A DNA stretch of 64,000 bases from a virus. Its lineage: Duplodnaviria > Caudoviricetes. Both the position numbers and the translations under genes were made by a program. Location: the IMG/VR virus record IMGVR_UViG_3300042291_001013; one strand, written 5' to 3'. The notes beneath the pieces were generated by a model that saw only the letters and a list, made by a program, of their open reading frames with translations, made no database searches and was not told the DNA's origin. Shown here in pieces: positions 1 to 47,036 of the stretch; position 1 is the stretch's first letter; each line of letters begins with the position of its first letter.

Positions 1-1167
1 TTGTGCCAGTCGATCTTTAAATGTGTCCAGAGCTTCGGGTGACGCAAACTGTGTGCGACCCTTGGCGTCTTTGATTAGACTGTTGCCCTTACGTGCAATT
101 AAATCAAAGAACATGTTCTTGGGCACTGTGACGCCTTGCTTGACTGTGTTGCCTGCTTGACGATGCAACTCAACCTTTTTGACTTCGCGGCTCTTGCTAC
201 CGGAACTGAAGTTGATTATAAAGTTAGGCGGATGCGAGCCTGTGGCCACATCGCCCATTTTGGTATAAGCATAGAATTTAACGTCAGGATTGGCCTTGGC
301 CACATCATATGCTAGGTCAAGGTATTCTTTACTAAAGAAGTCTCCTGCATCGTGCCAGCGCACCACAAGCTGAATACCAGCTTTATCTGTTTTGTTTTTG
401 AGTGCTGTGATTTCTTTGTTTACAGCGGCCATGTAGCCTTCAGGCTCATTTACCAGGAAGTTCAAGGCCTGTGCCGCGCTCATGCTAGACGCCGGGAACA
501 TTACATAACCGCCTTTACGTGCATAGCAGAACAACTGACATTCGCCTGCGCCCGGGCAGGTCTTTATTTCCACAAAGTCACCCGACTCTTCATCTACTAC
601 AATACCACTCAGTGCAGGCAGTGTTAGATCATAAATGATTTCACCTTCGGTCTTGCTCTTTTCCATTTTGGCATTGGTGCCTAGAATAGCTCGAGGACGT
701 GTGGTGATTTGCTTGGCTAGATCATCTAGATCCCACTCAGTGCCGCCATCGTCCTTGGTAATGGCTTTAATGTTTGAGCCGTGTATAATGGGTGCAAACT
801 TGTCACGCTTGGTCTTGGTGCCTGTTTTGATACGGTCAGCATAGCCTTGCAATTCATCTCGACTCAGTGTTTGTTGTGGTGCATTGAGCTTGATAGCTTC
901 CGCCACACCTTGCTCGTTTTTAACTACAAAACTTGTGTGCTGAAGACCAGTAAGGGGGTCCGTGTATGTGCGCTTGAACACCTTACCGCCATGCTCACGT
1001 GCATGAGCAAATGCTTCAGACTTGCTGTCAAACCTGTTTGAGGGAGGCTTAATCATGGGAGACGCTTGTTCATCTACTCCGCTTTGATCTACTGTGACAA
1101 CAGTAACAGGGAATCCTCCCAGGGTGCGCGGAGCTTCAGCTTGCTCCACAATGGTTTGTAACTTCAT
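1..1167 (-). CDS. Modular protein with C-terminal GP88-like (radical-SAM-like) domain; truncated by the window edge and missing from the ORF track
   Basis: Manual translation from ATG 1167: MKLQTIVEQAE...EQGVAEAIKL...TCPGAGECQLFCYARKG...VVRWHDAGDFFSKEY...FYAYTK. The reading frame stays open to base 1, and its ATG overlaps the upstream TGA (ATGA). Confidence 0.8.
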   Translation of the reverse strand, partial: MKLQTIVEQAEAPRTLGGFPVTVVTVDQSGVDEQASPMIKPPSNRFDSKSEAFAHAREHGGKVFKRTYTDPLTGLQHTSFVVKNEQGVAEAIKLNAPQQTLSRDELQGYADRIKTGTKTKRDKFAPIIHGSNIKAITKDDGGTEWDLDDLAKQITTRPRAILGTNAKMEKSKTEGEIIYDLTLPALSGIVVDEESGDFVEIKTCPGAGECQLFCYARKGGYVMFPASSMSAAQALNFLVNEPEGYMAAVNKEITALKNKTDKAGIQLVVRWHDAGDFFSKEYLDLAYDVAKANPDVKFYAYTKMGDVATGSHPPNFIINFSSGSKSREVKKVELHRQAGNTVKQGVTVPKNMFFDLIARKGNSLIKDAKGRTQFASPEALDTFKDRLAQ

Positions 1168-3815
1168 TTTGCTTCTCCAAATATAGGCCCACGCACAAAT
1201 TGGCCCAGTTGATTTAATATACCATTACGCAGGTTTTCAATCATTTCATCTGTGATATCTCTACGGCGTGTTTGCGCAATAAAGATATGCATTTCAATGG
1301 CGTCATCGCCTTCTTTTTCCAGTATAGCATGGCAACGATGACGTCCGTCATGTCCTTTTACTCGGGCTTCTAGACTAAAGTCACCCTGCTCCCAGGATTC
1401 GGGTACAGACACATTCAAAAATGGTGCGCCAATGCCGCGCTCATTGAGTTCGCCTTTGCAAAACGCAATTGCCTTGCGCTCTTCAGGATCATGTGGGTCC
1501 ATGGGCAGGGCCAGCTTTAGAAACATCGACGGGCGCATTTGTACCTGTAGGCCAAAGTAATCAACGTCAGCATTGTAGGGCACAGCACCCACACCTGAAG
1601 AGTTGTTGATACGTACTTCGTCTAGGCTTTCATTTTTTCTTTTGGCTCGGGCACGACCTGATTTCATGTTGGCCAACCAGTGTGCCAGTTGTCCTTTGCG
1701 CCCGCCTGATTTGGCAGTTTTGCGTAAGCTACTTACACTTGCTTTGGTATTGATACCGTGTCGCTTGGCATCGCCCTTGTCTTGTGGATTACGCCCGTCG
1801 GCAAAGTTTTCTGATACACCTTGCTTGTCAGCCCAGAGCAAGCGTCCTTCTTCTTGCGCTATACGATGTATGTTGGTTCCCAATTTGGTGGGCTGTATGT
1901 CATAGTTGTCGAACTGTGCTGAAAGTTTTTGAAGTATTCTTACAGCACCAAGATATTGATCGCCCACAAGATCATCAGGCACAACTACCAGGATATCAGT
2001 GTCGCTGTTTCTACGATGTTTTCCTGTAGCGCGACTACCATGGAACCATATTTCTTGTGCCACAGGCATGACTTTTTGTATGGCATCAACCACTTCTGGC
2101 CGTACAGAACCTGGTCGAGCTTCGTCTACGTTGTATGTGGGATCAGTCTTTTGACGCGGCATGTCTGGGGGCTGATTGGGATCAACAGGGTCAATGTCTG
2201 TTGTAGTAAGCCCAGTGCGTTTCAGCGCCTGTATGTACTGATGTTCAAGATCTTCGTCACCAAAGCTCAGTATGGCGCTGGGAGGTCCGGCACCAAAGTC
2301 ATGCTTGCCTAGGCCTTTCATGTTGGAAATATGTTGTCCCAGCTTGTACCAGTCGTAGACATCGCTTACATCTACCTTGACAGTGCCTGCAGGCATAGTG
2401 GGCGGAGTTTCTGGGCCCAAGGGTGCATTTAAATCCCTATTGTTGTTGGGACCTTTACTGGGCTGGGGCAAGCGGTATTCTACCATGTCAACTCGGCCGT
2501 CAGCACGTAGCATTTGTGGGCGACCTTGTGCATCAGTTTTTAGACTCATGCGGTTGGCATTTAATCCTGTGGCGCCGGGACGTACATCCTGTGTTAGAGC
2601 CATTTCAAATCTGGGATCATTCTTTTCGGCTTCAGTGGGAATATAACCTGAGCTTTCAAACATAGCAGGGTTGCGATCAGCCCAGTCACGCATGATCACA
2701 CCGGCCACAGCATGTGCTTGGTTTTCCCAGTCACTGCCGGTGTCGCCTGCTTCGTCAGGCAACTCACTATCTTGATTTTGTCTACAATGTGCCAGCTCGT
2801 GTGCAGTGGTGCGCAAGATATCCATGACATGGCGGTTAACCAGGCTCACTTCTAGTGTGTGCGTTTCAGGCGTGTAGCGTCCAAAGCTGTGGCTTTGGGA
2901 ACTCCACTCAGGGTCAGTGTGCAGTTCAATCTGTGGTATTTGTGTTATGCCCAAGCGATCTGCCGCATAGTCAATAAAGTCACGCACCACAGCTTCAGTG
3001 TCCCGGGGCTCGTCTTCTAGGAACATCTTGGTTGAAGGATCCACACCGTCTGGACTTTCTGACATGAAGCCGTAGATTACCGGCGCCATTGGGGTGTTCT
3101 TTTCTGCTAGGCTAAGTTCCTTGGCATGTGCGGCATTGCGAGCGTCAATTAACTGTTTGATAGCACCATGTGCTCGCAACATCTTGAACACCAAGTTGTC
3201 GCAGCCAAATTCGCCCTGCTGTTCCAGGCCAGTTTGGCGCATGGTTTTGATTTTTTGTTGTAGACTACGCATACGATCACTATCGTCACTGGCCACAGCA
3301 GATTCTATACGTGCTTTTAGATCTTGATACTTGGCTTGTACACAGCTATCGTCAATGGTGACTTGTCTGCGTCGAGGAACCTGTATCCAGGCATTGCGCA
3401 ACAAACTGTAAATGCCTTGACTGTGATGTTCTTGATCAGAAGGCTGTGCATACAGTTCTACATCAGCGCCGCCAATGCGTATGTTGTGTTGTTCGTTGTA
3501 CTGATATTTTTTAGCATTAAACAGCTCACGATACACTTCGTCATGAACAACATTGGGTATTTCCACCACAATGTGCAGATCAATGTCAGATCCGTCAGTG
3601 TAGTTGTAGGCCGCGTTAGATCCGCTTACCGTGATGTCTTTGACATCAAGATCGGGTACGCCCAAGAATTCTTGAAAGTCTCGGGCCACCTGTAACAGGC
3701 GTTCTTTTACCTGGGGATGCAGATGTTCTGCACTGTCCCATAACCGAGGGTTGAGTCGGTCATGGAATTTTACAGCATCTGCCAGGTTGAATGATTCCAG
3801 TTCAAATATGTTCAT
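1164..3815 (-). CDS. Polyvalent modular protein: pol-beta-type nucleotidyltransferase, HExxH zincin, second minimal nucleotidyltransferase, ParB-like C-terminus
   Basis: Motifs VSGSNAAYNYTDGSDIDLH, AHELAHCRQ, WFHGSRATGKHRRNSDTDILVV and GHDGRHR; TAAATA box 8 nt upstream of ATG. Confidence 0.75.
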   Translation of the reverse strand: MNIFELESFNLADAVKFHDRLNPRLWDSAEHLHPQVKERLLQVARDFQEFLGVPDLDVKDITVSGSNAAYNYTDGSDIDLHIVVEIPNVVHDEVYRELFNAKKYQYNEQHNIRIGGADVELYAQPSDQEHHSQGIYSLLRNAWIQVPRRRQVTIDDSCVQAKYQDLKARIESAVASDDSDRMRSLQQKIKTMRQTGLEQQGEFGCDNLVFKMLRAHGAIKQLIDARNAAHAKELSLAEKNTPMAPVIYGFMSESPDGVDPSTKMFLEDEPRDTEAVVRDFIDYAADRLGITQIPQIELHTDPEWSSQSHSFGRYTPETHTLEVSLVNRHVMDILRTTAHELAHCRQNQDSELPDEAGDTGSDWENQAHAVAGVIMRDWADRNPAMFESSGYIPTEAEKNDPRFEMALTQDVRPGATGLNANRMSLKTDAQGRPQMLRADGRVDMVEYRLPQPSKGPNNNRDLNAPLGPETPPTMPAGTVKVDVSDVYDWYKLGQHISNMKGLGKHDFGAGPPSAILSFGDEDLEHQYIQALKRTGLTTTDIDPVDPNQPPDMPRQKTDPTYNVDEARPGSVRPEVVDAIQKVMPVAQEIWFHGSRATGKHRRNSDTDILVVVPDDLVGDQYLGAVRILQKLSAQFDNYDIQPTKLGTNIHRIAQEEGRLLWADKQGVSENFADGRNPQDKGDAKRHGINTKASVSSLRKTAKSGGRKGQLAHWLANMKSGRARAKRKNESLDEVRINNSSGVGAVPYNADVDYFGLQVQMRPSMFLKLALPMDPHDPEERKAIAFCKGELNERGIGAPFLNVSVPESWEQGDFSLEARVKGHDGRHRCHAILEKEGDDAIEMHIFIAQTRRRDITDEMIENLRNGILNQLGQFVRGPIFGEAK

Positions 3816-3836
3816 TGAACTGTTATTTACCGCAGT

Positions 3837-4808: not shown

Positions 4809-4859
4809 GTTATCTCCGTTAAAAGTGTGCAGATATTTAATGCAGTACACCCGGTACTA

Positions 4860-6242: not shown

Positions 6243-6257
6243 AATGAGTATTTAGCG

Positions 6258-7227: not shown

Positions 7228-7237
7228 AGTGTATTAT

Positions 7238-7876
7238 TTATTGCTTTTGAATAATGGGCATGGTCTTTCTCACCGTCCCGGGCACAGCTATGTGCAACAG
7301 CATGGCGTCTTTTTCGTCATGATGATCCACAAAGAATGATCTAGTGATGTAGGACTGACGGATCAGGCGCCCTTGCCAATGTTTAGTTAGTTTAAACTGC
7401 TGGGGTCTACTGAGTAGGAATTGACTCAAAATCCTCAGTTGATCTTTGGTATAGTGTTTTTCCCGAAAGTAAGTGCGCCATTGATAACTGCTGTCTTTTA
7501 GTAGCACAACATCTCTAGGAAGATCTACCACGGCCTGTTGAAAGTAGCAGTGACTGACCCCGGGAAAACGCTGTAGGATTTCAAAAAAGCCAGGATCGTT
7601 GGTGTAAAAATACTGCCAGTCAGTGTACACCATGCGCTTGTAAGGTACTTCAATGCTGAGAATAGTGTCACACAGTTCCAGCATGGATTCTATAGGCTTG
7701 ATGATTTTCTGTCGATACAGTGAAGCAAAAGCCACAGATTCCTGTATGGACTTGTGCGTGAGTGTTCGCATGCGCCCAGATCCTTCAAATCTAAAGCACA
7801 TGGAATACTCGTACTGATCAAAAAACAGTCTATCTTTACTGACTTGTTTATACATCTGGGAACCTAATAATACCAT
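7238..7876 (-). CDS. Hypothetical protein
   Basis: ORF downstream of clpA. Confidence 0.6.
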   Translation of the reverse strand: MVLLGSQMYKQVSKDRLFFDQYEYSMCFRFEGSGRMRTLTHKSIQESVAFASLYRQKIIKPIESMLELCDTILSIEVPYKRMVYTDWQYFYTNDPGFFEILQRFPGVSHCYFQQAVVDLPRDVVLLKDSSYQWRTYFREKHYTKDQLRILSQFLLSRPQQFKLTKHWQGRLIRQSYITRSFFVDHHDEKDAMLLHIAVPGTVRKTMPIIQKQ

Positions 7877-10133: not shown

Positions 10134-10181
10134 ACGCTATTATACTACTTACACCAAAAAACCACAACCATTACGGATAGG

Positions 10182-10979
10182 TTATCGGTGTTGTTGAATC
10201 GCAGCCATGATGGCCGGATCCACTTGATCAGGTATTTGTGCTTGTATCTTGACAAAAAGGTCACCACGCTGTCCTGCTCGATCCAGGATGCCTTGCTGTC
10301 GCAAACGCAGAGTGGTGCCAGGTTGACAGCGTTCAGGAATGGTAACTACCAAACTGTTTCCATCCAAGGTGCGTATTTCAGCTGTGCCGCCCACAATCAA
10401 ATCCCACACCACAATTTCATGTTCGGTGTAAAGATTAAGTCCTTCTCTGCGCCAACGTCGATCAGGCTGTAGTCTAAACTGTATCACAAGGTCTTGCCCA
10501 CCTGGAGCAATGCCGGTGTACTGAACATTGTCTCCGTCGTTGATGCCTTGCGGTATTTCAATTTCCACAGTTTGTTGACCAGAAGCGGTGCCCAGGGCCA
10601 CTGTGCGGTGACCGCCACGTATGCAGTCCAACAAGCTGATCCACAGTGTCATGCGCACATGACTTTGTCGGGGACGCTGAGCAAAGCCCTGTCCAAAAAA
10701 TGGATTGCCTCCACCGCCGCCAAACATGCCGCCAAAGATGTCATTGATGTTGACATGCACACCATCACCAAATCCCCCAAACTGTGGCTGTGGGTTGTCA
10801 TAGGCCTGTCGTTTAGCTGGATCTCCCAGAGTATCGTATGCGGCTTGAATCTCTTGAAACTTTTGTGTGTTCCCACCCTTGTCCGGATGATGTTGGCTGG
10901 CCAGCTTGCGAAAAGCTCGCTTGATTTCATCTGCTGTGGCTGTTTTGGCAACACCTAATGTTGCATAGTGATCGGTCAT
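10182..10979 (-). CDS. dnaJ: DnaJ/CbpA-like J-domain co-chaperone lacking the Zn finger
   Basis: J-domain with HPD (HHPDKGG), G/F-rich linker, DnaJ C-terminal domain. Confidence 0.92.
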   Translation of the reverse strand: MTDHYATLGVAKTATADEIKRAFRKLASQHHPDKGGNTQKFQEIQAAYDTLGDPAKRQAYDNPQPQFGGFGDGVHVNINDIFGGMFGGGGGNPFFGQGFAQRPRQSHVRMTLWISLLDCIRGGHRTVALGTASGQQTVEIEIPQGINDGDNVQYTGIAPGGQDLVIQFRLQPDRRWRREGLNLYTEHEIVVWDLIVGGTAEIRTLDGNSLVVTIPERCQPGTTLRLRQQGILDRAGQRGDLFVKIQAQIPDQVDPAIMAAIQQHR

Positions 10980-10980
10980 G

Positions 10981-11013
10981 AAAAAGGCCCTGTATGTTTA
11001 ATTATACAGGGCC
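10981..11013 (-). terminator. Rho-independent terminator overlapping the dnaJ promoter
   Basis: 10-bp stem GGCCCTGTAT/ATACAGGGCC with 8-nt loop, followed by TTTTT on the minus strand. Confidence 0.8.
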
Positions 11014-13364: not shown

Positions 13365-14246
13365 TTAGCAGTTCCACTTTCTTAGTGCTAGAGCTTTGCG
13401 TGTGGGCTTACCATTGGGCTTTTTCATTGGGCCTTTAACTCCGCCCATTCTTGCACAGAAACTCTTGCGGCGCTTGGCTGCTTTTGATCCTGGCTTGAGC
13501 TTGCTGGGCTTTGTGGTCACTGCCATTTGCAATTTACTACCAGGATTCTCTCTGCGATAGCTGGCAACACCTTTGGCGTTGAGTCCGCCTTTTTTGCTCT
13601 TGCCTGCACTGCGTCTCCAGGCGGCTGTTTCGTATAACACGTTGTCTGGCATGGCTTCAAACTGTTCCCACACTAGGTCTTTACTCACGCGATTTTTAAT
13701 AGACATTTCTTCAGCCAACTCGTCCATGGCTTCAAACATGGCGTCTATCTCGGGATCCACTTCGTCTGAGGCTTCTTCTGAATACATGTAATCCCATACC
13801 GCAACCAACATTGATTTGGCCACAGCAATTTTTTCTTGGCACCATTCAGGCAAGTTGTCACCTGATTGAATCAAGTCATCAATGCCTTCAACAGCACGTT
13901 GCAATGTTTCCAAGTTGTTGTCAGCCATGCCTGCTTCGTCATCGTATTCAGGGTTGTAGTTTTCGTCCACGCCTGCTTCTTTCTTTTTAGCAATAGCAAT
14001 TGCGGCTTGCTGTGCAGGATTGGCAGCTTCTTCAACACCTTCTGATTTGTTGCCATAACTGCCAGCGCCTTTTTTGCGACACTGAACCAAGCGTCCAGAT
14101 GCATACGCACTTGGCCATACCTTGGCACTTGCTTTGACCTTGTAGTAACAAGCGTCTTTCTTTTCTGTCATCATCATTTCACTAAACATGGGCCCGCCGC
14201 AATGCGGACATTTGTGTGATGACTCTGTTATGTCTTTGAATTTCAT
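13365..14246 (-). CDS. Modular basic/acidic protein of the type seen in T4-like cyanophages; putative internal head protein
   Basis: MKFKDITE leader; modules KKDACYYKVKASAKVWPSAYASG and AWRRSAGKSKKGGLNAKG...RRKSFCARM separated by x-x-E junctions. Confidence 0.65.
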   Translation of the reverse strand: MKFKDITESSHKCPHCGGPMFSEMMMTEKKDACYYKVKASAKVWPSAYASGRLVQCRKKGAGSYGNKSEGVEEAANPAQQAAIAIAKKKEAGVDENYNPEYDDEAGMADNNLETLQRAVEGIDDLIQSGDNLPEWCQEKIAVAKSMLVAVWDYMYSEEASDEVDPEIDAMFEAMDELAEEMSIKNRVSKDLVWEQFEAMPDNVLYETAAWRRSAGKSKKGGLNAKGVASYRRENPGSKLQMAVTTKPSKLKPGSKAAKRRKSFCARMGGVKGPMKKPNGKPTRKALALRKWNC

Positions 14247-14818
14247 TTGCGTTTTCCTTTGGTACTTACATTTATGGCGGCACCCGAACGGTTGGGATTG
14301 GGATCTTCTCGGCGTTTGCGGGCTGCCGCACTGGCACGACCTTTTTTGCCCAGGGCATGTGCTTTGGCTTGAGGCAAACACTTGGGCTTGCCTTCTTTAC
14401 TACTGCCTCTGGCACAGTCCCCACGTATCTTGCCGTCGGGTCCAAATCGAACCCACTTTTGTTTAAACCAGTCTCGAAGATTTTCTTCAAGCTCTTGAGT
14501 TGACATTTTCTTTTCATACCCTTGCACAGCAGTGTTTCTAGCAGGGTTGGGTGCATCTTTAAATTTGGATGCTGGCAAAAACTTGTCAATACTTTTCAAT
14601 GTTAGTGGACCCATTATGCCATCTATGTCCAAGTTGGCATTGTGTTCTTGATTTAGCATTTGCTGTATTCTGCGTACCGAGTCAGAATCTTTATTTTCTT
14701 CTTCAAGTTCTGTTTCACTCACAGGCACACAATTGGGAACCATTCTAGAGCCTTTTTTCTTCATGCCAGCTTGACGGTATCCGTCCCAGCAGGCTTCTAG
14801 TATTTCTCTGTATCTCAT
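14243..14818 (-). CDS. Modular protein; putative internal head protein with a peptidoglycan-binding-like segment
   Basis: MRYREILE leader; ACWDGY...VPNCVP module; VRRIQQMLN...LDIDGIMGPLT (PG-binding-like); LRDWFKQKWV...PKCLP module. Confidence 0.6.
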   Translation of the reverse strand: MRYREILEACWDGYRQAGMKKKGSRMVPNCVPVSETELEEENKDSDSVRRIQQMLNQEHNANLDIDGIMGPLTLKSIDKFLPASKFKDAPNPARNTAVQGYEKKMSTQELEENLRDWFKQKWVRFGPDGKIRGDCARGSSKEGKPKCLPQAKAHALGKKGRASAAARKRREDPNPNRSGAAINVSTKGKRK

Positions 14819-19039: not shown

Positions 19040-19810
19040 TTAATATCCTGCTTTTGCTATTTCAGCACCGCGGTTAAAACTGTCACTCCATGATGCTGTG
19101 CTGACACCGCCGCGAGCCTTTGACCATTGGTAACCGGCTCTGTGTCCTGAACAGTCTTTTGTACAAGGACTCATGCCCATGAACGTTAATTCTCGCAACT
19201 GTTCTTGCCCTTTGATGCCAATTACCATGCTTCGTATATAGTCAGTCTCGGGGTCTTCAAGTTTGATTTTGTCTTTGAAAAGAACCTTTTCCAGGGGAAA
19301 TAGTTCCAGCAATTGATCAGGCGAACCAAAATTGTGTTCACTGCTGGCCTGTACATTGTCTCGGCCCTGCAGGACCACAAGAGTTCCTGAAGGTATGTTA
19401 TCAAACCAGCCATGGTCAGGAATGTCTGTGGTGCTGGTGTTTATTACCAGGCCAGGATCTTGTAACTGACGATAGTCAATTTGATTGGCATCAGCTCGCA
19501 TGTGGTCTACACCATCAATGTTCATGCTCTGTTGCATTTGTTTTCCCTGACGCAACCATTTGGCGTTCTTTTCCACGTCAATGATGCGTTCAATAGGAGT
19601 GTTGGCTTTGCGCAAGATAGTACTCAAGTTACTGTACCATGAGCCCAGTACATAAGCAACTGGCACAGAGTCAATACCCTGTTTGCGCATGACTTGTTGT
19701 AGTTCACGAGCCAACCATATCTTGCTCAAGATCAAGTCTGTGGTATAACTGCCGGCCAAGCTGTAGCCAGAACTTTCTTCAAGTGGTGCATACAGCTCGT
19801 TTAGAATCAT
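19040..19810 (-). CDS. Rossmann/methyltransferase-like protein with Glu leader and short Cys-containing C-terminal module
   Basis: MILNELYAPLEE leader, VLGSWY, IIDVE, VINTS, LVVLQG; C-terminal LRE-LTFMGMSPCTKDCSGHRAGY module. Confidence 0.5.
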   Translation of the reverse strand: MILNELYAPLEESSGYSLAGSYTTDLILSKIWLARELQQVMRKQGIDSVPVAYVLGSWYSNLSTILRKANTPIERIIDVEKNAKWLRQGKQMQQSMNIDGVDHMRADANQIDYRQLQDPGLVINTSTTDIPDHGWFDNIPSGTLVVLQGRDNVQASSEHNFGSPDQLLELFPLEKVLFKDKIKLEDPETDYIRSMVIGIKGQEQLRELTFMGMSPCTKDCSGHRAGYQWSKARGGVSTASWSDSFNRGAEIAKAGY

Positions 19811-21520: not shown

Positions 21521-21522
21521 TG

Positions 21523-25088: not shown

Positions 25089-25628
25089 TTATCGTTCTTT
25101 CTTAGGCTGCTGTGCAGGTTGTACCGCTGTGGGTACGTTTTTATAAACACGTTTTTCAGGATCGTAAACTGTTTTTAGTGGGCCCATGCCTGCTAGCTGT
25201 TTAACTCGGGCAACCATGGCTTGATAGTCATCGCCATAGTCTGCTTCTTTTTCTTTGTTTTCTGCTACACCTTGCTTTTTAGCTTGTTGAATCTTTGCTT
25301 GTATTAATTTTAACTGTTTGCTCAATGGGTCGTCTAGACCAACACGACCGCCGTCTTTTACAATAGCATCGATCTTGTCGCTGATTTCGCTTGCTTTAGC
25401 TTTTAATGATGTTAAATCATCAGCGCCTTCCGCCACACCTTGCTTTCTATTATCCAATTTGGTAAACGCTTTAACAAAATTAGGACCACTTTTCATGCTT
25501 TTTGAGTCACTGCGTTTTGTAGGATCCATTTTGTGTTTAAGGTTATCTTTATCTAATTTTGTTAGATAACTGGTTAGCGTAGCATCACTAACCTCCGCCA
25601 CACCTTGAGTAAATTCATTCAGTCTCAT
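25089..25628 (-). CDS. Modular protein with three QGVAE junctions; putative internal head protein
   Basis: MRLNEFTQGVAE...KQGVAEG...KQGVAEN. Start placed at MRLNE. Confidence 0.65.
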   Translation of the reverse strand: MRLNEFTQGVAEVSDATLTSYLTKLDKDNLKHKMDPTKRSDSKSMKSGPNFVKAFTKLDNRKQGVAEGADDLTSLKAKASEISDKIDAIVKDGGRVGLDDPLSKQLKLIQAKIQQAKKQGVAENKEKEADYGDDYQAMVARVKQLAGMGPLKTVYDPEKRVYKNVPTAVQPAQQPKKER

Positions 25629-34902: not shown

Positions 34903-34914
34903 TGTTTGTCCTAG

Positions 34915-38742: not shown

Positions 38743-38775
38743 GTGTTAAGACCTTGTTGTTATATTTATTGGTGG

Positions 38776-39336
38776 TTAGAAACCATTGGTCAAGCTGTTG
38801 TAGAATATACGACCAGATATTGAACTGGTTCCACCAATAGTAAACGCAAAATTGCTTTGAGCAAAAAAATCGTAGGTGCCAAAAAAGTAGTACTCATACT
38901 CTTGGGGCAAATAGGTTGACCACTGTATTCTAATAGGCACATAGCTGTTGGCCGTGGCAGTGAAGTTAGCACCAGTGGTACCATTTTGAATTAGTGCTGT
39001 GTAGTTGCTGCCGTTGTAACCTGACTTGGCAGTGTTACCGGTCCAGATATAACAGGTGCTGTTGCCACCACCACCCCAATTGTATGCAGTAGCGCCACCT
39101 CCATTAAAAGTATAATATTCTGCATAGGTGCACACAGCACCCAATTGGATTGCAGACGAACTTGCTGGTCTGTAATATCCAATCCATTGATAAGTTACTG
39201 AATATGCTCCACCTTCAGATGACTGTGTGCCAATGTCAATAGGTGATAGTTCTAGGCCATATGTGGTATTAACAAGACCATTGGCATAGATAATGTTTTG
39301 GCCTGTGCCAGCCACGGCTGCCATGATACCACTCAT
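38776..39336 (-). CDS. PA14-like beta-sandwich structural protein
   Basis: QWIGYYRP and YVPIRIQW pattern. Confidence 0.5.
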   Translation of the reverse strand: MSGIMAAVAGTGQNIIYANGLVNTTYGLELSPIDIGTQSSEGGAYSVTYQWIGYYRPASSSAIQLGAVCTYAEYYTFNGGGATAYNWGGGGNSTCYIWTGNTAKSGYNGSNYTALIQNGTTGANFTATANSYVPIRIQWSTYLPQEYEYYFFGTYDFFAQSNFAFTIGGTSSISGRIFYNSLTNGF

Positions 39337-41685
39337 TTAGGTGATTCCTGTTCCTGAAATATACCAAGTATCTGAAGCCACCTTGATCAAGGATGCCTGT
39401 CCATACTGTGCTAGTGTACGTGCTCCAGTGGTGCCTGTGCCGGCCAGTAATAAACTAACACCACCTGCTGGGCTAATTGTAGTTGATGCACTGGCTATAA
39501 CAAGTATAGCAGTACCAATAGTAAAGGCCACTGATGCATTGGTTGGAATTGTGATTGTGCCTGAGCCATAATAGTGTTTGCCGCCATCCTGTCCTGTTAG
39601 TGTACCAAATGCAGTGATCTGCGGTAGGTCTCTATAGCCAATTGTGTAGTTTGCACTGGTGACAGTGGCAGTGTTGCCAGTCACACTCAAACTGGCAGTT
39701 GACGTCAGTGCCGCAGATATAACGTTGCCGCCGTTGACGTTGCCGCTAACACTCAAACTGGTACCACTAACACGAGCTGATGCAACAACGTTGCCACCTG
39801 TAACGTTGCCTGTGGCTGATACTAAACCTGCGGTGTTGACATTACCACCAGTGACATTGCCGCTTACTGTGGCAAATCCGCCTGTGATAACGTTACCACC
39901 AGTAACGTTGCCAGTGGCACTGACTGTTGTGGTAGAAGTAATTGCACCTTGTGCTTCAACCCCACCCAGTACCATGCTTCCATATGCGGCCACACCTGTA
40001 ACAACTTCGTTAAGGATTGTGACTGACGTTGCCGCAAGCAGTTTGCCAGCTGAGTTGTCATAGCCAATAAAGGCTATTTTTTCTGATGTGTCGTACCAGT
40101 ACAGTGCTTCGCCGCGGTCCTTGCCGTCGTTGCTTAACAGCGGATCATTGTTGGGTCCACGACCAATGTTGATAATGGGATCTTGTATTGCCAGAGTAGT
40201 AACGTTGTTGTATTCTGTAGTACCGCCCACAATCAAGTTACCAGTAATAGTAGTGGTGCCGCCTACGCTGAGTGTGCCTGCTGTAGCAATGTTGCCACCT
40301 GTTATAGTTCCGTTGGCTGTGAGTGCGGCAGTGGATTTGTTAAAGGTCAATGCACTATTTGCGTTGGCTATGTTGTTATCGTTAAAGATAATCTGCGTGT
40401 TGGCACCTGGAGAAGCAATATTACCACTGATGTTACCAACCACATTGCCTATAAAGTATGGCGCCACCACGTTGCCAGCAGCCTGCACTTCGCCACCGGT
40501 GTTGATGTTACCGCCAGTGACGTTGCCAGCTACTGATAGCGATACCAGCGCACCAACTTGTGTAATGTTGGTTTGACTGGCAGTGGTCAGAGTACCCACA
40601 ATGTTGCCACCAATCAGCGTTCCTGCGGCGCTGACGTTGCCGGCTGTGACAAGATTTGCACCCACAACGTTACCTGATGAAGAAATCAATGCCCCAGTTA
40701 CTCGCTGTGTAGCATTTACGTTGTTACCAGCAATGTTACCACCAGTTAAGTTTGCAGTGATATTACCGCTGGAAATCAAACTGCCAGTAAACACCGCGCC
40801 CACGCCTTCAACGTTGCCAATACTCACAATGTTGGCACCTGTAATATTACCAGTGGCATTGACCGTTGTGCCCAGTGTTATGGCGTTGGCATCAATACTA
40901 CCAGTGCCGCCCAGAGCATTGCTCACAATCAAGCTGTTTAGGTTGCCCACACTCTGCAAGGTACTTGTGGTTACGTTGGCACTGAGCACGTTGTAAGTTA
41001 GCGAGGCCGCATTTGAACTAACTGTAAAACCTGTTAAACCCGCACCGTTGCCCACAAAAAAGTTGGCGGTCATTGTACCACCTGCTGTGATTGCACCTGC
41101 GGCACTGACCTGTCCAGCAGTGGTCAAGTTACCACCTGCTACGTTACCAGTTGCAGCCACGCCACCACCTGTTACAAAGTTCTGTGCCAGAGCGTTACCT
41201 GATGCACTAACAATTCCTGCTGTGGTAAGGTTACCACCACTGGCGTTGCCAGTCACTGCCAGCGAAGTCAGTGTGCCCACAGTTTGCAAGCTGGAGTTTA
41301 CAACGTTGGAGCTCAGTGTTGCACCAGTAATAAGTGCAGCCGGAGCACTGGAAATAACCCCAGTTAATTGACTTCCGTTGCCAAAATAGAATCCACCTGC
41401 TGTGATGTTGCCTGTAGCTGAAATTGTGGTGTTTGCCAGGAATGTGCCTTGTAGCGTGGCGCCTGTTCCTGAAACCACCAGCACGTTGGCCACGTTTGCG
41501 GAACTAACGCTGACTGTGGCGTCTTCAATAATGTTGATGTTTGAAGAACCGTTAGAAATACCTGACACACCACCGATGTTAAACAGTTCAGTGAAGTTAG
41601 AGTTGGTCTTGGTAAACGCCGTACGAATTGGGTCACCTTGCCCGTCGTTTGCTACGTTTCCTATGTCAATTAGTTGTTGTGCCAT
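39337..41685 (-). CDS. Tail-fibre/baseplate protein with T4 gp9/gp10-like N-terminus
   Basis: IDIGNVANDGQGDPIRTAFTKTNSNFTEL followed by GNVTGGN repeats. Confidence 0.8.
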   Translation of the reverse strand: MAQQLIDIGNVANDGQGDPIRTAFTKTNSNFTELFNIGGVSGISNGSSNINIIEDATVSVSSANVANVLVVSGTGATLQGTFLANTTISATGNITAGGFYFGNGSQLTGVISSAPAALITGATLSSNVVNSSLQTVGTLTSLAVTGNASGGNLTTAGIVSASGNALAQNFVTGGGVAATGNVAGGNLTTAGQVSAAGAITAGGTMTANFFVGNGAGLTGFTVSSNAASLTYNVLSANVTTSTLQSVGNLNSLIVSNALGGTGSIDANAITLGTTVNATGNITGANIVSIGNVEGVGAVFTGSLISSGNITANLTGGNIAGNNVNATQRVTGALISSSGNVVGANLVTAGNVSAAGTLIGGNIVGTLTTASQTNITQVGALVSLSVAGNVTGGNINTGGEVQAAGNVVAPYFIGNVVGNISGNIASPGANTQIIFNDNNIANANSALTFNKSTAALTANGTITGGNIATAGTLSVGGTTTITGNLIVGGTTEYNNVTTLAIQDPIINIGRGPNNDPLLSNDGKDRGEALYWYDTSEKIAFIGYDNSAGKLLAATSVTILNEVVTGVAAYGSMVLGGVEAQGAITSTTTVSATGNVTGGNVITGGFATVSGNVTGGNVNTAGLVSATGNVTGGNVVASARVSGTSLSVSGNVNGGNVISAALTSTASLSVTGNTATVTSANYTIGYRDLPQITAFGTLTGQDGGKHYYGSGTITIPTNASVAFTIGTAILVIASASTTISPAGGVSLLLAGTGTTGARTLAQYGQASLIKVASDTWYISGTGIT

Positions 41686-41773
41686 GTTTAGAGTCCTGTG
41701 TTGTATTTACCAGAACCCTAGACTGCGTCAACATAGCTTGATCATGGCTAAATACAAACAATCGGAGCGATCA

Positions 41774-43444
41774 ATGTCATACATTATAAACAACACCCGT
41801 GGAAACGTCATTGCAGTTGTGGCTGACGGTACTGTTAATACCTCAGCCACAGATCTTGCGTTGGTGGGTCGCGGACTTACAGAGTACGGTGAGTACGAAA
41901 ACGAAAACTACGTATATTTGCTGGAAAACTTTGCAAATAACTCAGCACCCTTACAGCCCATTACAGGACAGCTTTGGTATGATATTGGCAATGACGTAAT
42001 TGCCACTTACACGTCGGGAAACATCTGGAGCAATCTGGCCAGCCAAGACTATGTGCAGGCACAAAAGATTAGCCCAGTTTTTACTGGGGTACCAATTGCA
42101 CCCACTGCATCAGCAGGCACAGCCAGCACACAGCTTGCTACCACTGCGTTTGTGACCAACAGTCCACAATTTAGTGGTGTACCTACTGCGCCCACTGCCA
42201 CTCCCGGAACCCTGGGCAATCAAATTGCCACAGTGGGATTTGTAAACAACAGTCCACAATTCAGCGGGGCTCCACTTGCGCCCACAGCCGCTCAAGGTGT
42301 GAGCAATACTCAAATTGCCACAACTGAATTTGTCACCCGCGGTCCACAATTTAGTGGAATCCCCACAGCGCCGAGCACTGCAAATAATGTAAGCACTACT
42401 CAATTGGCCACAACAGAATTTGTACAAAATCAAAAAGTCAGTCCGGTGTTTACTGGCAATCCCACTGCACCCACAGCCGTGTTTGGAGACAACACGTCAA
42501 GCATTGCTACCACAGCATTTGTACAAAGCGAAAAGTTTAATACTGGATTAACCGGGGTGCCAACTGCTCCTAATGCTCCTTTGGGCACTGCAAATACTCA
42601 AATTGCCACCACTAACTTTGTGGCTATATCAACTGCGGCTCTGCCCACAATGAGTCAGCAAAATGCCAACGCAGTAACCATTTCAGGCGGTGCTATATTT
42701 GGTATTACTGATCTTGCTATTGCAGATGGCGGTACTGGTGCCAGCACAGCCGCCAATGCAAGAGACAACTTGGGCCTGGGCACTTTGGCCACTCAAAATG
42801 CCAATGCTGTTAGTTTTACCGGCGGCAACATGGGCAATATTGGTATCACTGGCGGTACTGTTACTGGACTTAACGTTCCGTTGGCATTGGTATCTGGTGG
42901 TACTGGCTCAGACAATGCCACACAAGCACGTACCAATTTGGGACTGGGATCAATGGCCACGCAAAATGCCGGCGCAGTTGCAATCACAGGCGGCACAATT
43001 GGTGGGTTAGGTACGCCAATCTCACTGGCTGATGGTGGTACTGGCGCAGCCACACAAGATCAAGCAAGAACAAACTTGGGCATTGGCACCCTGGCCGCAC
43101 AGGCTTTTGACAATGTGGGTATAACTGGCGGTACCCTGACAGGAATTAGTTTGTTCCAGGCAGCCAACGTAAATATCACTAGTGGTACCCTAACAGGTAT
43201 TGTGGATCTTGGTGTAGCAGATGGCGGCACCGGGGCAAGCGATCCCGTTAGTGCTAGACAAAATCTTGGCGCTGCCGCAAGCTCTGTGCAGATTATTGCG
43301 GGCGCAGGTCTGCAAGGTGGTGGCGACTTAGTTGCCAGCAGAACACTAGCAATTGCCACAAATTCAAACGGTTACGGAGTGAGATATATCAGTAACGATG
43401 ATCCAAGTGGTGGCAACAACGGTGATATTTGGTACCAAATTTAA
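41774..43444 (+). CDS. Repetitive tail-fibre-like protein
   Basis: Start MSYIINNT after a TAAATA box and GGAG RBS. About six ATTxFV...FxGxPTAPT repeats, then four DGGTG...ARxNLG repeats; ends GDIWYQI. Confidence 0.8.
   Translation: MSYIINNTRGNVIAVVADGTVNTSATDLALVGRGLTEYGEYENENYVYLLENFANNSAPLQPITGQLWYDIGNDVIATYTSGNIWSNLASQDYVQAQKISPVFTGVPIAPTASAGTASTQLATTAFVTNSPQFSGVPTAPTATPGTLGNQIATVGFVNNSPQFSGAPLAPTAAQGVSNTQIATTEFVTRGPQFSGIPTAPSTANNVSTTQLATTEFVQNQKVSPVFTGNPTAPTAVFGDNTSSIATTAFVQSEKFNTGLTGVPTAPNAPLGTANTQIATTNFVAISTAALPTMSQQNANAVTISGGAIFGITDLAIADGGTGASTAANARDNLGLGTLATQNANAVSFTGGNMGNIGITGGTVTGLNVPLALVSGGTGSDNATQARTNLGLGSMATQNAGAVAITGGTIGGLGTPISLADGGTGAATQDQARTNLGIGTLAAQAFDNVGITGGTLTGISLFQAANVNITSGTLTGIVDLGVADGGTGASDPVSARQNLGAAASSVQIIAGAGLQGGGDLVASRTLAIATNSNGYGVRYISNDDPSGGNNGDIWYQI
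42050..43290 (+). repeat. Two degenerate protein-level tandem repeat arrays inside the fibre gene (boundaries approximate)
   Basis: Repeat units of about 30-33 aa visible in the translation; DNA copies are diverged. Confidence 0.75.
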
Positions 43445-43454
43445 AGATTAAAAT

Positions 43455-45761
43455 ATGCCATTAGTAGTCAGGGCCATAGGCCACACAGGACAAACCCAAC
43501 GATTGGTTTGGAATCAAGGTAACAATGTACCGGTTACTGCTTACCTTTGGGGTGGCGGTGGTGGCGGTGGTGGCAATGACAGCAACCCAGGTGGCAACGG
43601 CTCAGGTGGCGCATTCAGCACCACCAACTTCACAGTCAACGAAGGCGACGAACTGCTTTGCGCCGTGGGTGGCCCTGGGGGCCCTGGGGGATCGGGTAGC
43701 AATGCACCCGGAGGATTTGCTGGCGCCAGTTTTATGGCTCAGGGAACAGGCACTTTTTGGGACAGCAGAAGTAATATTGCAAACGGCAATTTTTCAAACG
43801 GAAATATTGGAGCAGGACAACCCTACAGCAACGGTGCCTATTGCAGTTTTTTAAACACGTATGGAATTTGGAACGCCAACTCATTGGGCGGCGTCTATAG
43901 TGAAAATCTTGATGTTGTGTGGAATGTGAGTTTTGCCACCACCGGATACTACAACTTTACCATCAGCTGTGACAACCGAGCTGAGCTGTTTATTGATGGC
44001 AATTTTGCTTGTTTCAGCGATAATTTCAGAACAACTTTCCAACAGTTGTTTTACATAACTGCTGGCACACATAGTATTAGAGTAGTTGGTCTCAACACTG
44101 GCGGTCCTGCGGCAATGGGATTAACTATTAGCGGCGGCACCGGTGATACTGTTTTCAATACTAGAACCACACCAGCTACTCCTCCAGTTTATCCAGCTAC
44201 TGGATATAATAATTCCAGTGTATTTCAAAATGAATTTGGTGTTTGGGAGTCACCATACCAAATCTTCTGCAATCGATCATACAGTGTGCTTTTTCCTACG
44301 TCAGGATCATACACCTTCCAACTTAGTGTTATATACACCGCCACTGTCACTTTAGATGGGGTTACTATATTGCAATCAACAAATTCCTACATCAACCCGC
44401 AGCCTAGTAATGTCACCCTGGTTGTCAGTGCCGGTTATCACCAATTGGCATTTACTGCACAGGGTGTTGATGGGGAAGACGGACCAGGATCAATTGCTTT
44501 GTTAGTGACCAGCAACTCTCAACAATCATATACTGGTGGGCGCGGAGGAAACTCTGGAGGTGCTGGTGGCTCAGGTGCTGGCGGAGGTGGCGGAGGTGCC
44601 ACAATTGTGTACAAGAACGGCTCCGTAATGGCCTGTGGTGGCGGAGGAGGTGGCGGAGGCGGAGGCGGTAACGTAGGAGCCGCAGCCGGACAAAGTGCGC
44701 CAGGCGCCAAAGGACAGGCACCTGTGGGAACACCAGCTGGACAAAACGGAACCAATAAAAACGGCGATGGTGGCGGAGGTGGTGGAGGTGGTGGAGGCTT
44801 AGGCGGCGGCAACGGAGGTGAATCACCAGGTGGTGACGTGGGTGGGCAAGCAGGTGCGTATGGCCTAGGTTCTGGAACCCCAGTTGAACCCAATGGTGTC
44901 ACGCCCGGAGCATCAACTAGCTCTTTTTACAAAGGCGGCACCGCTGTGGGCGGGGTAACTGCACAACAAGGCACAGGCGGCTATGCTGTGTTGGTATTTG
45001 ATGTAGGCGGCACATTTGTTCATCAAAATGGCAACTTTACCGTGGCACAAAAAGTCTGGATCAAAACCGCAGTAGCCTGGCAAAGAGTCAAAACTACCTG
45101 GGTCAAGGACAACGGCGCATGGGAACCAGTGCTGGGATTTTTTGCTCCGTACTTTACACCTATAGACGGATACTGGGGCAGTCAGCCACGTGATGCTGAT
45201 GGCGATGCTGGTGCTGGAGGCGGCGGCGGCGGATGTAAGATTATTTGCCAGAAGTTGGCCGAAATGGGCTTCTTTGATTCAGCAATGAACACAGCTGATC
45301 AACAGTTTGGCGTAATGCTACGAGACCAAGATCCTGATGCCTACAACGGCTATCTGCGTTGGGCACAGCCTGTGGTTGATTTGCTAGACGGCAAAGGCAG
45401 CGTGAAGTTCCGCAAGATTGTGTTGTTCTGGGTGCGTGATGAACAGCGTCGTCAACAGATTCAAAGCAACATTGTGGCACATTACCTGGATGTTATTGCT
45501 AGGCCCTGGGCAGAAGAAATGGCCTATCGCATGAAGGCCGAAGGACATGATCACAGCAATCCAGCTGGACGTTTTATCATGAACATTGGATTACCAATGT
45601 GTCGTGCTATTAGCCGATTTGGCAAACGTAAAGAGTTACCAATGTGGCTCAAGACTGTGTTGATCTGGGCAACTACCACTGTGTTGTTAGTGGCAGTGAC
45701 TGTGATATCCACTGTGGATAAAGTGATCAACCGAGTACGTAAATTATTCAAGAAAGATTGA
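43455..45761 (+). CDS. Gly-rich receptor-binding/tail protein with PA14-like domains and a C-terminal GGGGGC-KIIC domain
   Basis: Poly-Gly tracts, YYNFTISCDNRAELFIDG; C-terminal helical domain with a hydrophobic segment. Confidence 0.7.
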   Translation: MPLVVRAIGHTGQTQRLVWNQGNNVPVTAYLWGGGGGGGGNDSNPGGNGSGGAFSTTNFTVNEGDELLCAVGGPGGPGGSGSNAPGGFAGASFMAQGTGTFWDSRSNIANGNFSNGNIGAGQPYSNGAYCSFLNTYGIWNANSLGGVYSENLDVVWNVSFATTGYYNFTISCDNRAELFIDGNFACFSDNFRTTFQQLFYITAGTHSIRVVGLNTGGPAAMGLTISGGTGDTVFNTRTTPATPPVYPATGYNNSSVFQNEFGVWESPYQIFCNRSYSVLFPTSGSYTFQLSVIYTATVTLDGVTILQSTNSYINPQPSNVTLVVSAGYHQLAFTAQGVDGEDGPGSIALLVTSNSQQSYTGGRGGNSGGAGGSGAGGGGGGATIVYKNGSVMACGGGGGGGGGGGNVGAAAGQSAPGAKGQAPVGTPAGQNGTNKNGDGGGGGGGGGGLGGGNGGESPGGDVGGQAGAYGLGSGTPVEPNGVTPGASTSSFYKGGTAVGGVTAQQGTGGYAVLVFDVGGTFVHQNGNFTVAQKVWIKTAVAWQRVKTTWVKDNGAWEPVLGFFAPYFTPIDGYWGSQPRDADGDAGAGGGGGGCKIICQKLAEMGFFDSAMNTADQQFGVMLRDQDPDAYNGYLRWAQPVVDLLDGKGSVKFRKIVLFWVRDEQRRQQIQSNIVAHYLDVIARPWAEEMAYRMKAEGHDHSNPAGRFIMNIGLPMCRAISRFGKRKELPMWLKTVLIWATTTVLLVAVTVISTVDKVINRVRKLFKKD

Positions 45762-45762
45762 C

Positions 45763-46164: not shown

Positions 46165-46499
46165 ACTGAAAAACTGCTGCCGCAGCCGCAAGTTGACACT
46201 GCTTGCGGATTGTTGATCACAAAGCTAGCGCCTGCTAGATCTTCTTTGTAGTTGATTTCACTGTTTTGCAAGTACTGCCAGCTCATTGAGTCTACCAGCA
46301 CCTTGACATTGCCATACGCAAGATCAAAGTCATCTTCGTTTTGTTCTTCGTCTAGAGTAAATCCATAGCTGAATCCTGAACATCCCCCACCTTGTACAAA
46401 CACTCGTAGTTTGAGATTGGGGTTGTTATCTTCGGCTAGAATATCTCGGAGTTTTTCCACTGCGGATTCAGTCAAGTTCATTATAGTCTTTCGTTGCAA
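46161..46499 (-). CDS. erpA: ErpA/IscA/HesB-family Fe-S carrier
   Basis: [17 protein letters not shown] and [14 protein letters not shown] motifs. Confidence 0.93.
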
Positions 46500-47023
46500 A
46501 CGTCCCAGTCAATGATCTTCCAGATATTGTCTAAGTAACGTTCTTTGTCGCTTTGGTAGTCCAGGGCCCAGACATGTTCCCACCAGTCCACCAGTACACA
46601 AATATCAGTGCGCACTTGGTGGTTGGGAATGGTTTTGATGTCGCCCCCGGTGCTGAGATAAACCCAACCTGATCCTTGGATCTTCATTGCGGCTTCTTTG
46701 AAAGCTTCTTTGAAATCTTCGTAGGTTTTAAACTTTTCTTCTATCAGCGCAAGTACTGCACCACGGGGGCGATTGGCACCTTTAGGAGCCCTAAGCTGAG
46801 GGAAGAACTTATTGTGTAAAAAACTGCCAGCACGATTAAAATTCGCATTGCCTTCTCCTGCGTTGTAACGCTTGGCATAGCCCCGGGCCAAGTGTCCATA
46901 ATGGTATTCTAAACTTTCTTTACTCAACACTGGTTCAAGGTCTTTTTCGCCGTAGGGCAAGGGAGTGGTTTCCAGTTTTGCTGGACGGGTGTTTGCTTCA
47001 ATCAAGTCAATTTGTTCACGCAT
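46481..47023 (-). CDS. sod: Fe/Mn superoxide dismutase with an extra Glu-terminated leader
   Basis: PLPY, HYGH, FLHNKFF, GSGWVYL and DWWEH metal ligands. Confidence 0.9.
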
Positions 47024-47028
47024 GTTAG

Positions 47029-47036
47029 TATTTATA
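47029..47036 (-). promoter_or_regulatory. T4-type late promoter TATAAATA
   Basis: Exact T4 gp55 consensus 5 nt upstream of the sod ATG. Confidence 0.75.

Follow-up and report, generated by a model that had tools for sequence, protein, structure and literature searches.

In phage T4, the internal proteins IPI, IPII and IPIII and the protein Alt carry a Glu-ended leader of ~10 residues that is common to otherwise unrelated mature proteins. Residues 1-10 of IPIII constitute the capsid-targeting sequence, with residues 4 and 7 of the leader acting in targeting and residues 8 and 10 in processing (PMC9026906), and the prohead protease gp21 cuts after L/I-X-E (PMC3012670; PMC9026906). As read from T4 DNA, the leaders are MKTYQEFIAE (IPII and IPIII), MELITELFDE (Alt) and MAKINELLRE (gp24), and gp23 reads ...FLTE↓AEIGG (here and below, the arrow marks a cut, a predicted cut or the corresponding junction). 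Here we describe leaders of this kind, together with internal linkers ending in hydrophobic-x-Glu, in proteins encoded by a 64,000-nucleotide stretch of DNA (the window) from the IMG/VR virus record IMGVR_UViG_3300042291_001013 (Duplodnaviria; Caudoviricetes). The window corresponds to bases 9755-73754 of this 128,034-base record, read on the reverse strand; positions are those of the window, and negative positions lie outside it. Our reading, to which we assign a probability of roughly 0.65 as a whole, is that the phage is a member of an uncultured, T4-like clade of giant phages (~350 kb) whose head module comprises a portal, a core, a gp21-type protease, a scaffold and a gp23-like capsid protein; that about ten unrelated proteins carry a T4-style, Glu-ended N-terminal propeptide of 8-15 residues which would serve as a capsid-targeting sequence; and that the protease would remove this leader and cut the linkers in the prohead, loading the head with cut-up enzymes.

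The clade resembles T4 in having a gp21-family protease and a head module in T4 order, and its small basic modules resemble the T4 internal proteins. It differs from T4 in that its cargo, known from sequence alone, would lie in polyproteins of up to ~1500 aa with cut-type internal linkers and would take in a superoxide dismutase (SOD), nucleotidyltransferases and a zincin. Furthermore, Val, Met and Phe are tolerated at position P3, and the linker QGVAE is both codon-fixed and a homology breakpoint. In phiKZ, 201phi2-1 and SPN3US, head-internal proteins are likewise cut after Glu, in their case by gp175/gp245, a diverged gp21 homologue, and the propeptides contain redundant cleavage sites (PMC9026906; PMC10052503). 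However, P3 in those phages is Ser, Ala or Gly rather than Leu, Ile, Val, Met or Phe, their replication and capsid genes are not T4-like, as they are here, and no shared N-terminal leader or DNA-fixed linker has been described for them. Assignment to the phiKZ-type inner-body or ejection class was rejected on the hydrophobic P3 and the T4-like replication and head genes.

A third related group is formed by the polyvalent proteins of phages and conjugative elements, for which packaging, delivery together with the DNA and autoproteolysis by an MPTase domain have been predicted (Iyer, Burroughs, Anand, de Souza & Aravind, 2017; PMC5512222). These proteins are, as here, mosaics of nucleotidyltransferase, zincin (MPTase), amidoligase, deaminase, acetyltransferase, lysozyme/chitinase and GP88 modules; the passages of that account that were searched describe no N-terminal targeting leader or conserved linker and do not contain the word 'linker'. 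In the clade described here, by contrast, the junctions follow the prohead-protease rule and the leader is also found on single-domain proteins. In the literature we found no description of a whole series of unrelated enzymes in giant environmental phages with a T4-type leader in common, of polyprotein cargo cut at prohead-protease-type linkers, or of a codon-fixed linker that doubles as a homology breakpoint.

CheckV rates the record as 34% complete, which corresponds to a genome of ~375 kb, and nearly all genes in the record lie on one strand. Just beyond the window lies the gene of a family B DNA polymerase that shares 42-51% identity with its counterparts in T4-like jumbo phages, namely Sinorhizobium Phosso, Agrobacterium Atu_ph07 and the Rak2/121Q group. 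Megablast and blastn searches with the window DNA found no cultured phage with closely similar DNA. A search of IMG/VR with the SOD of the window retrieved 274 relatives, some of them near-complete (340-349 kb) and one with terminal repeats. Conservation of the enzyme (84-93% in the best 80 of the 274) suggests an abundant freshwater and marine clade. The closest near-complete relative (G026; 345,154 bases) is collinear with the record and ~72% identical to it where the two can be aligned.

The preliminary description of this DNA listed seven proteins with short leaders ending in Glu. All seven N-termini are exactly as given there, at the minus-strand starts 1167, 3815, 14246, 14818, 19810, 25628 and 47023, and the starts at 14246 and 25628 show an ATGA overlap with the upstream stop, typical of translational coupling. 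A leader of ~10 residues ending in L/I/V-x-E fits six of the seven (P3 being Ile, Leu or Val) and fails in MNIFELE (3815) at Glu7. Five leader-bearing proteins of the window and their internal sites are as follows; the SOD (47023) and the protein starting at 3815 are listed further below.

1..1167, minus strand: GP88-family protein, N-terminal 389 of 441 aa; the gene runs on to -158
1144..1167, minus strand: leader MKLQTIVE of the GP88 protein
1069-1083, minus strand: SGVDE site in the GP88 protein
898..912, minus strand: QGVAE linker CAAGGTGTGGCGGAA in the GP88 protein
13365..14246, minus strand: 293-aa protein with leader MKFKDITE (14223-14246), a Zn-ribbon and a C-terminal DUF6321 (PF19846)
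14028-14042 and 13962-13976, minus strand: EGVEE and AGVDE sites of the 293-aa protein
14243..14818, minus strand: 191-aa protein with leader MRYREILE (14795-14818), followed by a CWDGY module
19040..19810, minus strand: 256-aa protein with leader MILNELYAPLEE (19775-19810)
25089..25628, minus strand: 179-aa protein with the leader fused to the first linker, MRLNEFTQGVAE (25593-25628)
25428-25442 and 25260-25274, minus strand: later QGVAE linkers of the 179-aa protein, parting three basic modules of ~55 aa

Four more leader-bearing proteins of the record are encoded just left of the window, in the segment from -10174 to -159 (L002).

within -10174 to -159: 69-aa protein with the most canonical leader, MRANEFILE
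within -10174 to -159: 877-aa LysM protein with leader MILDQLFE
within -10174 to -159: 254-aa protein, MSNDIRSILE...LVE↓G
within -10174 to -159: 142-aa Cys-rich protein with leader MRNYLNLLE

Defined loosely, as I/L/V/M/F-x-E with the Glu at residue 6-12, a leader is present in 31 of 166 proteins, where 18.6-20.7 would be expected (p ~0.008), so that most loose matches are due to chance. As sole evidence the loose motif (31-35 genes against ~19-21 expected) was dropped as too weak, as was a stricter regular expression, which missed most true leaders. Because the loose definition discriminates poorly, a position weight matrix was learnt from independent data, using an expectation-maximisation (EM) mixture model on 665 open reading frame (ORF) N-termini taken only from other IMG/VR viral contigs. 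The resulting matrix describes M-(K/R)-(L/I/A)-x-(E/D)-(L/I/F)-(L/I/V), and the consensus of the class is M-R/K-x-x-E/D-F/L/I-I/L/V-x-E. A motif-model scan against shuffled controls, which the preliminary description had suggested, finds the leaders enriched in the 128-kb record: 12 N-termini reach at least 8 bits, whereas 1.0-1.3 are expected and the maximum is 6-7 in 1000 permutations keeping N-terminal composition. Four of the seven originally listed leaders pass 8 bits (25628, 10.5; 14818, 10.2; 14246, 9.2; 1167, 8.3), those at 19810 (7.4) and 3815 (6.4) come close, and the SOD leader (47023) scores below 3.3 bits, the SOD being kept in the set because of the comparative evidence from its relatives. 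The idea that the set is genome-wide did not hold up, as the genes are clustered, with about ten per 345 kb. G026 yields 16 matrix matches where 3.4 would be expected. Those that convince lie together at 338-345 kb and 0.7 kb, a region corresponding by synteny to the left part of the window, and a further match is the core protein adjoining the protease.

The same leader form recurs in other contigs, where ORFs containing QGVAE start MRAQEFITE, MRATEFIIE, MKTYQFITE, MKLSEIIIE, MNFKELFE or MRFNEITE, and many neighbouring ORFs free of the linker also start with leaders (MRANEFLIE, MRAKEFITE, MRASEFVTE). In these outside contigs, the loose motif is found in 52% of QGVAE ORFs versus 23% of their neighbours (Fisher p = 1.5e-7). 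The core E-F-I-x-E of the environmental leaders corresponds to T4 residues 6-10, and the matrix, although trained entirely on other contigs, gives the T4 leaders of Alt and gp24 8.1 and 9.2 bits, respectively. The likeness to the T4 capsid-targeting sequence that had been proposed is thus real, an E-F/L-I/L-x-E core being common to both. Leader codons vary freely, which indicates that the constraint acts on the peptide. A stand-alone homologue of the first nucleotidyltransferase module of the 883-aa protein described below, gene 26 of the cultured flavobacterial Maribacter phage Molly_1 (L218), starts MNLKTLVE; through it, the leader signal may reach beyond the T4-like giant clade.

Chance or composition, meaning N-termini rich in Lys/Arg, Leu/Ile and Glu and the frequency of hydrophobic-x-Glu in helical proteins, would account for the loose motif in 20% of genes and for 38 of the 52 internal triplets considered below. 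The permutation tests, the enrichment in QGVAE ORFs, the leader series of the SOD and the match with homology breaks all speak against it. It is refuted for the leader class as a whole, for which it is extremely improbable, and stands only for weak members such as MNIFELE. In this last case P3 is Glu, contrary to the rule, and the N-terminus is kept as MNIxEL(D/S/N), lacking Glu7, across hundreds of homologues. MNIFELE is therefore doubtful as a leader and is probably part of the nucleotidyltransferase N-terminus; residues 1-19 are of low confidence in the structural model, and the conserved I-x-E at residues 3-5 is a possible site.

The SOD provides the clearest series of leaders, and its gene is preceded by a late promoter box of T4 type.

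46481..47023, minus strand: Fe/Mn superoxide dismutase with the 9-aa leader MREQIDLIE (46997-47023)
47029..47036, minus strand: exact match to the late promoter box of T4 type (TATAAATA), 13 nt upstream of the SOD start

The enzyme assignment was confirmed by matches to the N-terminal hairpin (PF00081, 1.4e-6) and the C-terminal domain (PF02777, 8.8e-22), with the SOD domain starting near residue 16. Among 79 relatives there are 40 distinct leaders, of 9, 11, 13, 14 or 15 residues, and all 40 end in L/I-V/L/I-E directly before A-S/T-T-R-P-A-K. Pairwise identity is 45% at leader positions P8-P4 versus 88% in the mature enzyme. Such a pattern is as would be expected of a removable targeting propeptide, and not of a structural helix or a translation-enhancing sequence. 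A head-packaged SOD, if true, would be unusual. Exact TATAAATA boxes number only four in the 128 kb, and the one ahead of the SOD is context in favour of head cargo.

Leader and internal linker can moreover be exchanged for one another. Taking the module that follows each leader and reading the sequence that precedes its homologues elsewhere showed that the same modules follow either element.

Zn-ribbon (CPHCGGPM): leaders MIIDDLFE, MNINDIITE and MIVNDLFE; internal QGVAE, QVKE and AVEE
CWxGY module: leader MRYKEILE; internal QLDE, QGVAEEQLDE and TLDE
TTSGS module: leader MKMRDIME; internal EKIE and EKLDE
NGCP module: leaders MRNFINLLE and MRELINFIE; internal QAVAE

Similarly, in contig L018 the module that opens the 179-aa protein has an internal position, after KKQGVAE↓. 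Leader and internal hydrophobic-x-Glu linker are interchangeable before the same modules.

One chain with such linkers in the window is a polyvalent protein of 883 aa.

1164..3815, minus strand: 883-aa polyvalent protein (PF01909/PF18765; phrog_36119 over residues 14-236), comprising a nucleotidyltransferase (~20-241), a zincin (269-386, with HELAH at 339-343), a module without family at 473-555, a second, Pol-beta nucleotidyltransferase (~571-641) and C-terminal modules without family (670-883)
2655..2663, minus strand: junction MFE387↓S (AMFE↓S), where the zincin module ends; 6 homology ends plus 5 homology starts
2478..2486, minus strand: junction MVE446↓Y (DMVE↓Y); 19 homology ends, E446 kept in at least 90% of 34 homologues
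2121..2129, minus strand: junction VDE565↓A (YNVDE↓A), the main module-switch point; 64 of 172 homology ends
1809..1823, minus strand: QGVSE669 linker (QGVSE↓N); 32 homology starts

It has 1975 mosaic homologues (E ≤1e-5) of 540-1541 aa, which add amidoligase, deaminase, chitinase plus LysM, GNAT or GP88 modules, and with at least two unrelated effector-type domains, mosaic homologues and a zincin module it has the hallmarks of a polyvalent protein. Both nucleotidyltransferases that had been suggested are supported by Pfam matches, and Foldseek relates the first domain to aminoglycoside nucleotidyltransferases. The zincin also stands: it has no Pfam match, but H339-E340-x-x-H343 is invariant in 34 homologues and the fold of residues 269-386 matches minigluzincin zymogens (4jiu, abylysin, probability 1.00, and 4jix; the zymogens abylysin and jannalysin at probability 0.96-1.00, E 8e-3 to 0.13), the weak E-values resulting from the long, multi-domain query. 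A ParB-like C-terminus could not be substantiated, there being no match in Pfam (E up to 1), PHROGs or PDB sequences; model confidence there is low and the DGRHR-like motif was seen by eye only.

Homology breaks in this protein were counted as ends and starts of homology lying away from the termini of the subject sequences; in addition to the junctions listed, weaker breaks occur at E238/E253 and E733. Homology ends lie within two residues of hydrophobic-x-Glu in 58% of cases, against 19% for random sets of Glu (p ~0.008) and 9% at random positions (p ~0.0004). Among 34 aligned homologues, E238, F386-E387 and the HExxH motif show no variation. The AlphaFold model built on this alignment has confident domains at 20-241, 269-386 and 473-555, with predicted local confidence (pLDDT) below 50 at 1-19, 242-268, 387-472 and 556-622. 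E387 lies at the edge of, and E446 within, the low-confidence stretch 387-472, E565 lies within 556-622, and E669 likewise falls in a segment with pLDDT below 50, which places the junction Glu residues in or at the edge of linkers; E38, E49 and E85 lie inside the first domain. The generic I/L/V/M/F-x-E motif occurs 52 times in the seven proteins versus 37.9 after shuffling (1.37×, compared with 1.10× in the rest of the proteome). The proposed rule that internal modules are separated by this motif is consequently right in part: it captures the true junctions (58% of breaks), but the motif itself is unspecific, 38 of the 52 copies being expected by chance.

The presence of a zincin raises the question of which protease would act at these junctions. 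The chains might be cut in the cytoplasm, by the zincin module (as MPTase; Iyer et al., 2017) or by another phage or host protease. The 883-aa protein's own zincin, with its invariant HExxH and minigluzincin-zymogen fold, could do so, and autoproteolysis is predicted in the polyvalent-protein literature (PMC5512222). Most leader- and linker-bearing proteins, however, have no zincin, Glu at P1 with Leu, Ile or Val at P3 is the signature of the gp21/gp175 family (PMC9026906), and the leader has the same core as the T4 capsid-targeting sequence. We consider cytoplasmic cutting quite unlikely. Genes for ClpP and a ClpA-like ATPase are also present in the phage, which would favour such cutting. To our knowledge, however, ClpP does not cut at defined sites.

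The core of the finding is the commonest linker, QGVAE, which is conserved as DNA. In the record, QGVxE occurs six times against 0.49 expected; five copies are QGV(A/S)E (three in the 179-aa protein and one each in the GP88 and 883-aa proteins) and one is QGVTE.

898-912, 1809-1823, 25260-25274, 25428-25442 and 25593-25607: linker sites in the window

Three copies in the record have the DNA string CAAGGTGTGGCGGA in common. A 16-mer, CAAGGTGTGGCGGAAG, is present in at least 120 IMG/VR contigs, often in 2-5 copies within a few hundred bases, and in 159 of 162 cases it lies in an open frame reading QGVAE, between unrelated flanks. The junction of the GP88 protein is also found, with the same flanks, in an IMG/VR contig. 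Most of the 25 largest among the listed contigs with the 16-mer are fragments of ~350-kb genomes by CheckV. Taken more widely, the peptide has the consensus K-(K/E/Q)-Q-G-V-A-E-(G/A)-S, with basic residues ahead of the site and acidic ones behind it. No copies of the linker DNA motif were found in other frames or between genes of the record, and a search of the phage literature for QGVAE found nothing, only alpha-synuclein papers matching.

Codon usage was examined in 88 outside copies, left after dropping from each locus the one copy that had retrieved it. GGT is used in 87 of 88, GTG in 73 of 88 and GCG in 75 of 88, versus backgrounds of 46%, 23% and 10%; the linker codons (CAA GGT GTG GCG GAA) are rare in these genomes. 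Identical residues have the same codon in 90% of cases in the linker and 54% in diverged homologous flanks, the comparison being made on pairs with one homologous flank since requiring both gave no pairs. No clear covariation was found between GTG/GCG and GTA/GCA linker variants. Homology breaks at the same place: in the outside contigs, flank homologues continue across QGVAE in 21-29% of cases, compared with 60-66% at control positions.

These properties bear on a second alternative, namely that the motifs are joints, i.e., flexible linkers and in-frame recombination junctions of mosaics that remain uncut, the leader being a retained targeting or interaction helix. Conservation of the linker as DNA (GGT in 87 of 88; 90% against 54% codon identity) and the break of homology exactly at the linker are what it would predict. 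DNA exchange fails, however, to explain codon-variable leaders that always end in L/I-x-E (40 of 40 for the SOD), or why a module can have either a leader or a linker in front of it at one and the same place, and the MFE, MVE, VDE and LDE junctions have only the protease-rule residues in common. We judge uncut joints unlikely; they are otherwise compatible with the head-cargo reading, denying only the cutting. In-frame cassette exchange over 15-20 nt of identity and a rare-codon translational pause are candidate causes of the codon fixation. Tentatively, QGVAE may work on two levels, as a preferred head-protease site and as a codon-fixed microhomology (AG CAA GGT GTG GCG GAA GG) by which cargo cassettes are swapped between co-infecting giant phages; we regard this as possible, with the odds against it. 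Such a linker would be like an integron for head-packaged proteins, acting inside reading frames, and would give viruses a new route for shuffling an injected arsenal across an abundant freshwater and marine clade. The codon fixation itself points to a dedicated cassette-exchange mechanism without earlier description.

The preliminary description had also suggested a search for a gp21-like prohead protease, with a divided outcome. PF03420 (Peptidase_S77) is found once in each of five out of five near-complete syntenic relatives (340-349 kb); in G026 it lies at 195719-196147. Seven of the 25 largest among the listed contigs with the linker also have it, one of them a contig of 524 kb with a completeness rating of 100%. 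The 128 kb of the record itself, 34% of the estimated genome, do not contain it. Two of these linker-bearing contigs, G001 and G006, have a module in T4 order comprising portal, acidic core protein, protease, scaffold and gp23-like capsid protein, in which the scaffold is rich in L/I/M-x-E. The gp23-like capsid protein, of 400 aa, reads ...KKQLLAE↓SS before its conserved core, beside a segment that can be aligned with T4 FLTE↓AEIGG. The acidic core protein adjoining the protease (MDNKKFEQLIDLIINE...; L131 (G001) 8823-9653 and L132 (G006) 10118-10942) carries EQGMVE↓A or EEGMTE↓E, look-alikes of QGVAE, and its N-terminus, FEQLIDLIINE, is leader-like.

In the head-cargo reading, the leader would dock a protein onto the prohead scaffolding core, and a gp21-family serine protease would cut after the Glu of L/I/V/M/F-x-E, removing the leader and splitting multi-module chains at their Glu-ending linkers. 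The canonical cut linker would be K/E/Q-Q-G-V-A-E followed by G, and VDE, MVE, MFE and LDE would be others. The head would be left with free small basic proteins, the 179-aa protein giving three pieces of ~55 aa, and with freed enzymes and domains (two nucleotidyltransferases, a small zincin, the GP88-family domain, Zn-ribbon and CWxGY modules and the Fe/Mn SOD). Some of the freed cargo may leave with the DNA; of core docking, cleavage, packaging and ejection, all drawn from analogy with T4, we would regard ejection as the weakest of the inferred steps.

Besides the zincin discussed above, several observations weigh against this reading. The gp21-type protease was not found in the 128 kb of the record, and its presence is inferred from relatives. 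The 16-mer occurs only at chance level in 50,697 records (2.3 Gb) of cultured phages, so that the clade has no cultured member among them. The specificity of the linker (Q-G-V-A-E-G) and the fixation of its codons go beyond the needs of a protease site, which implies a role at the nucleic-acid level, sole or additional, and its most common form has Val at P3, where the T4 rule has Leu or Ile and the capsid site of the clade has Leu. The matrix also picks at least two likely false positives, the DNA polymerase and a phrog_12062 protein, in which the Glu is replaced by Asp or Gln in G026. The shorter TAAATA late box shows no enrichment upstream of canonical leader genes in other contigs (6 of 42 versus 173 of 698). 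The T4 late promoter was rejected as a marker of the set, there being four exact boxes in 128 kb and no enrichment outside.

If the head-cargo reading is true, the T4 principle, by which arbitrary proteins enter the capsid through a ten-residue tag and a Glu-specific head protease, would be far more extensive in these abundant, uncultured giant phages, and giant mosaic polyvalent proteins would be explained as precursors for cutting. Among giant-phage genes without known function, those encoding virion cargo and candidate early effectors could then be predicted by a simple rule of sequence, and the leaders could extend T4-style protein-packaging tools.

The remaining members of the set are less well characterised. 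The identification of the protein starting at 1167 as GP88-like was upheld (PF17338, 9e-33, residues 164-337), the domain following the leader and two short modules; likely counterparts, paired by their TLGGF start only, begin MRAHDFILKE↓TTLGGF (L012) and MRFNELQE↓TTLGGF (G026). Homologues of the 256-aa protein start MRLYDLNE↓SSP and MKASDLTE↓ASP. The methyltransferase assignment of this protein survives as a weak lead only, a language model suggesting a class I methyltransferase. The three ~55-aa modules of the 179-aa protein have isoelectric points of 8.2-9.8, and no family was found for the 179-, 254-, 142- and 534-aa proteins in Pfam, PHROG or PDB sequences. The 179-aa gene follows two genes matching 'virion structural protein' PHROGs, which is likewise context in favour of head cargo. 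Directly downstream of it (19973-25086, minus strand) are a 515-aa protein, which matches phrog_9158 and the 'protease' PHROG phrog_3677, and a 1187-aa ORF without family; both may be further virion components.

In addition to the SOD, the record encodes proteostasis and stress genes (7848-10112 and 10182-10979 of the window, both minus strand; L001:1863-2450; L002:6336-6779). They comprise a ClpA/ClpB-like ATPase (phrog_4871, E 7e-237), a cellular-type ClpP (PF00574, 276 bits), a Dps/ferritin protein and a product with a DnaJ-like start, judged by eye. ClpP was rejected as a head protease on its 276 bits to the cellular type and its position beside the ClpA-like ATPase and DnaJ, and is read as part of a proteostasis set.

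The region at 33400-45761 holds large ORFs (500, 1275, 186 and 782 aa) that are tail-fibre-like by N-terminal sequence only, one alone having a PHROG match ('structural protein'). Two genes of this block lie on the plus strand (41774-43444 and 43503-45761), and the product of the latter contains a run of eight Gly and has a weak partial match to a 'major head protein' PHROG.

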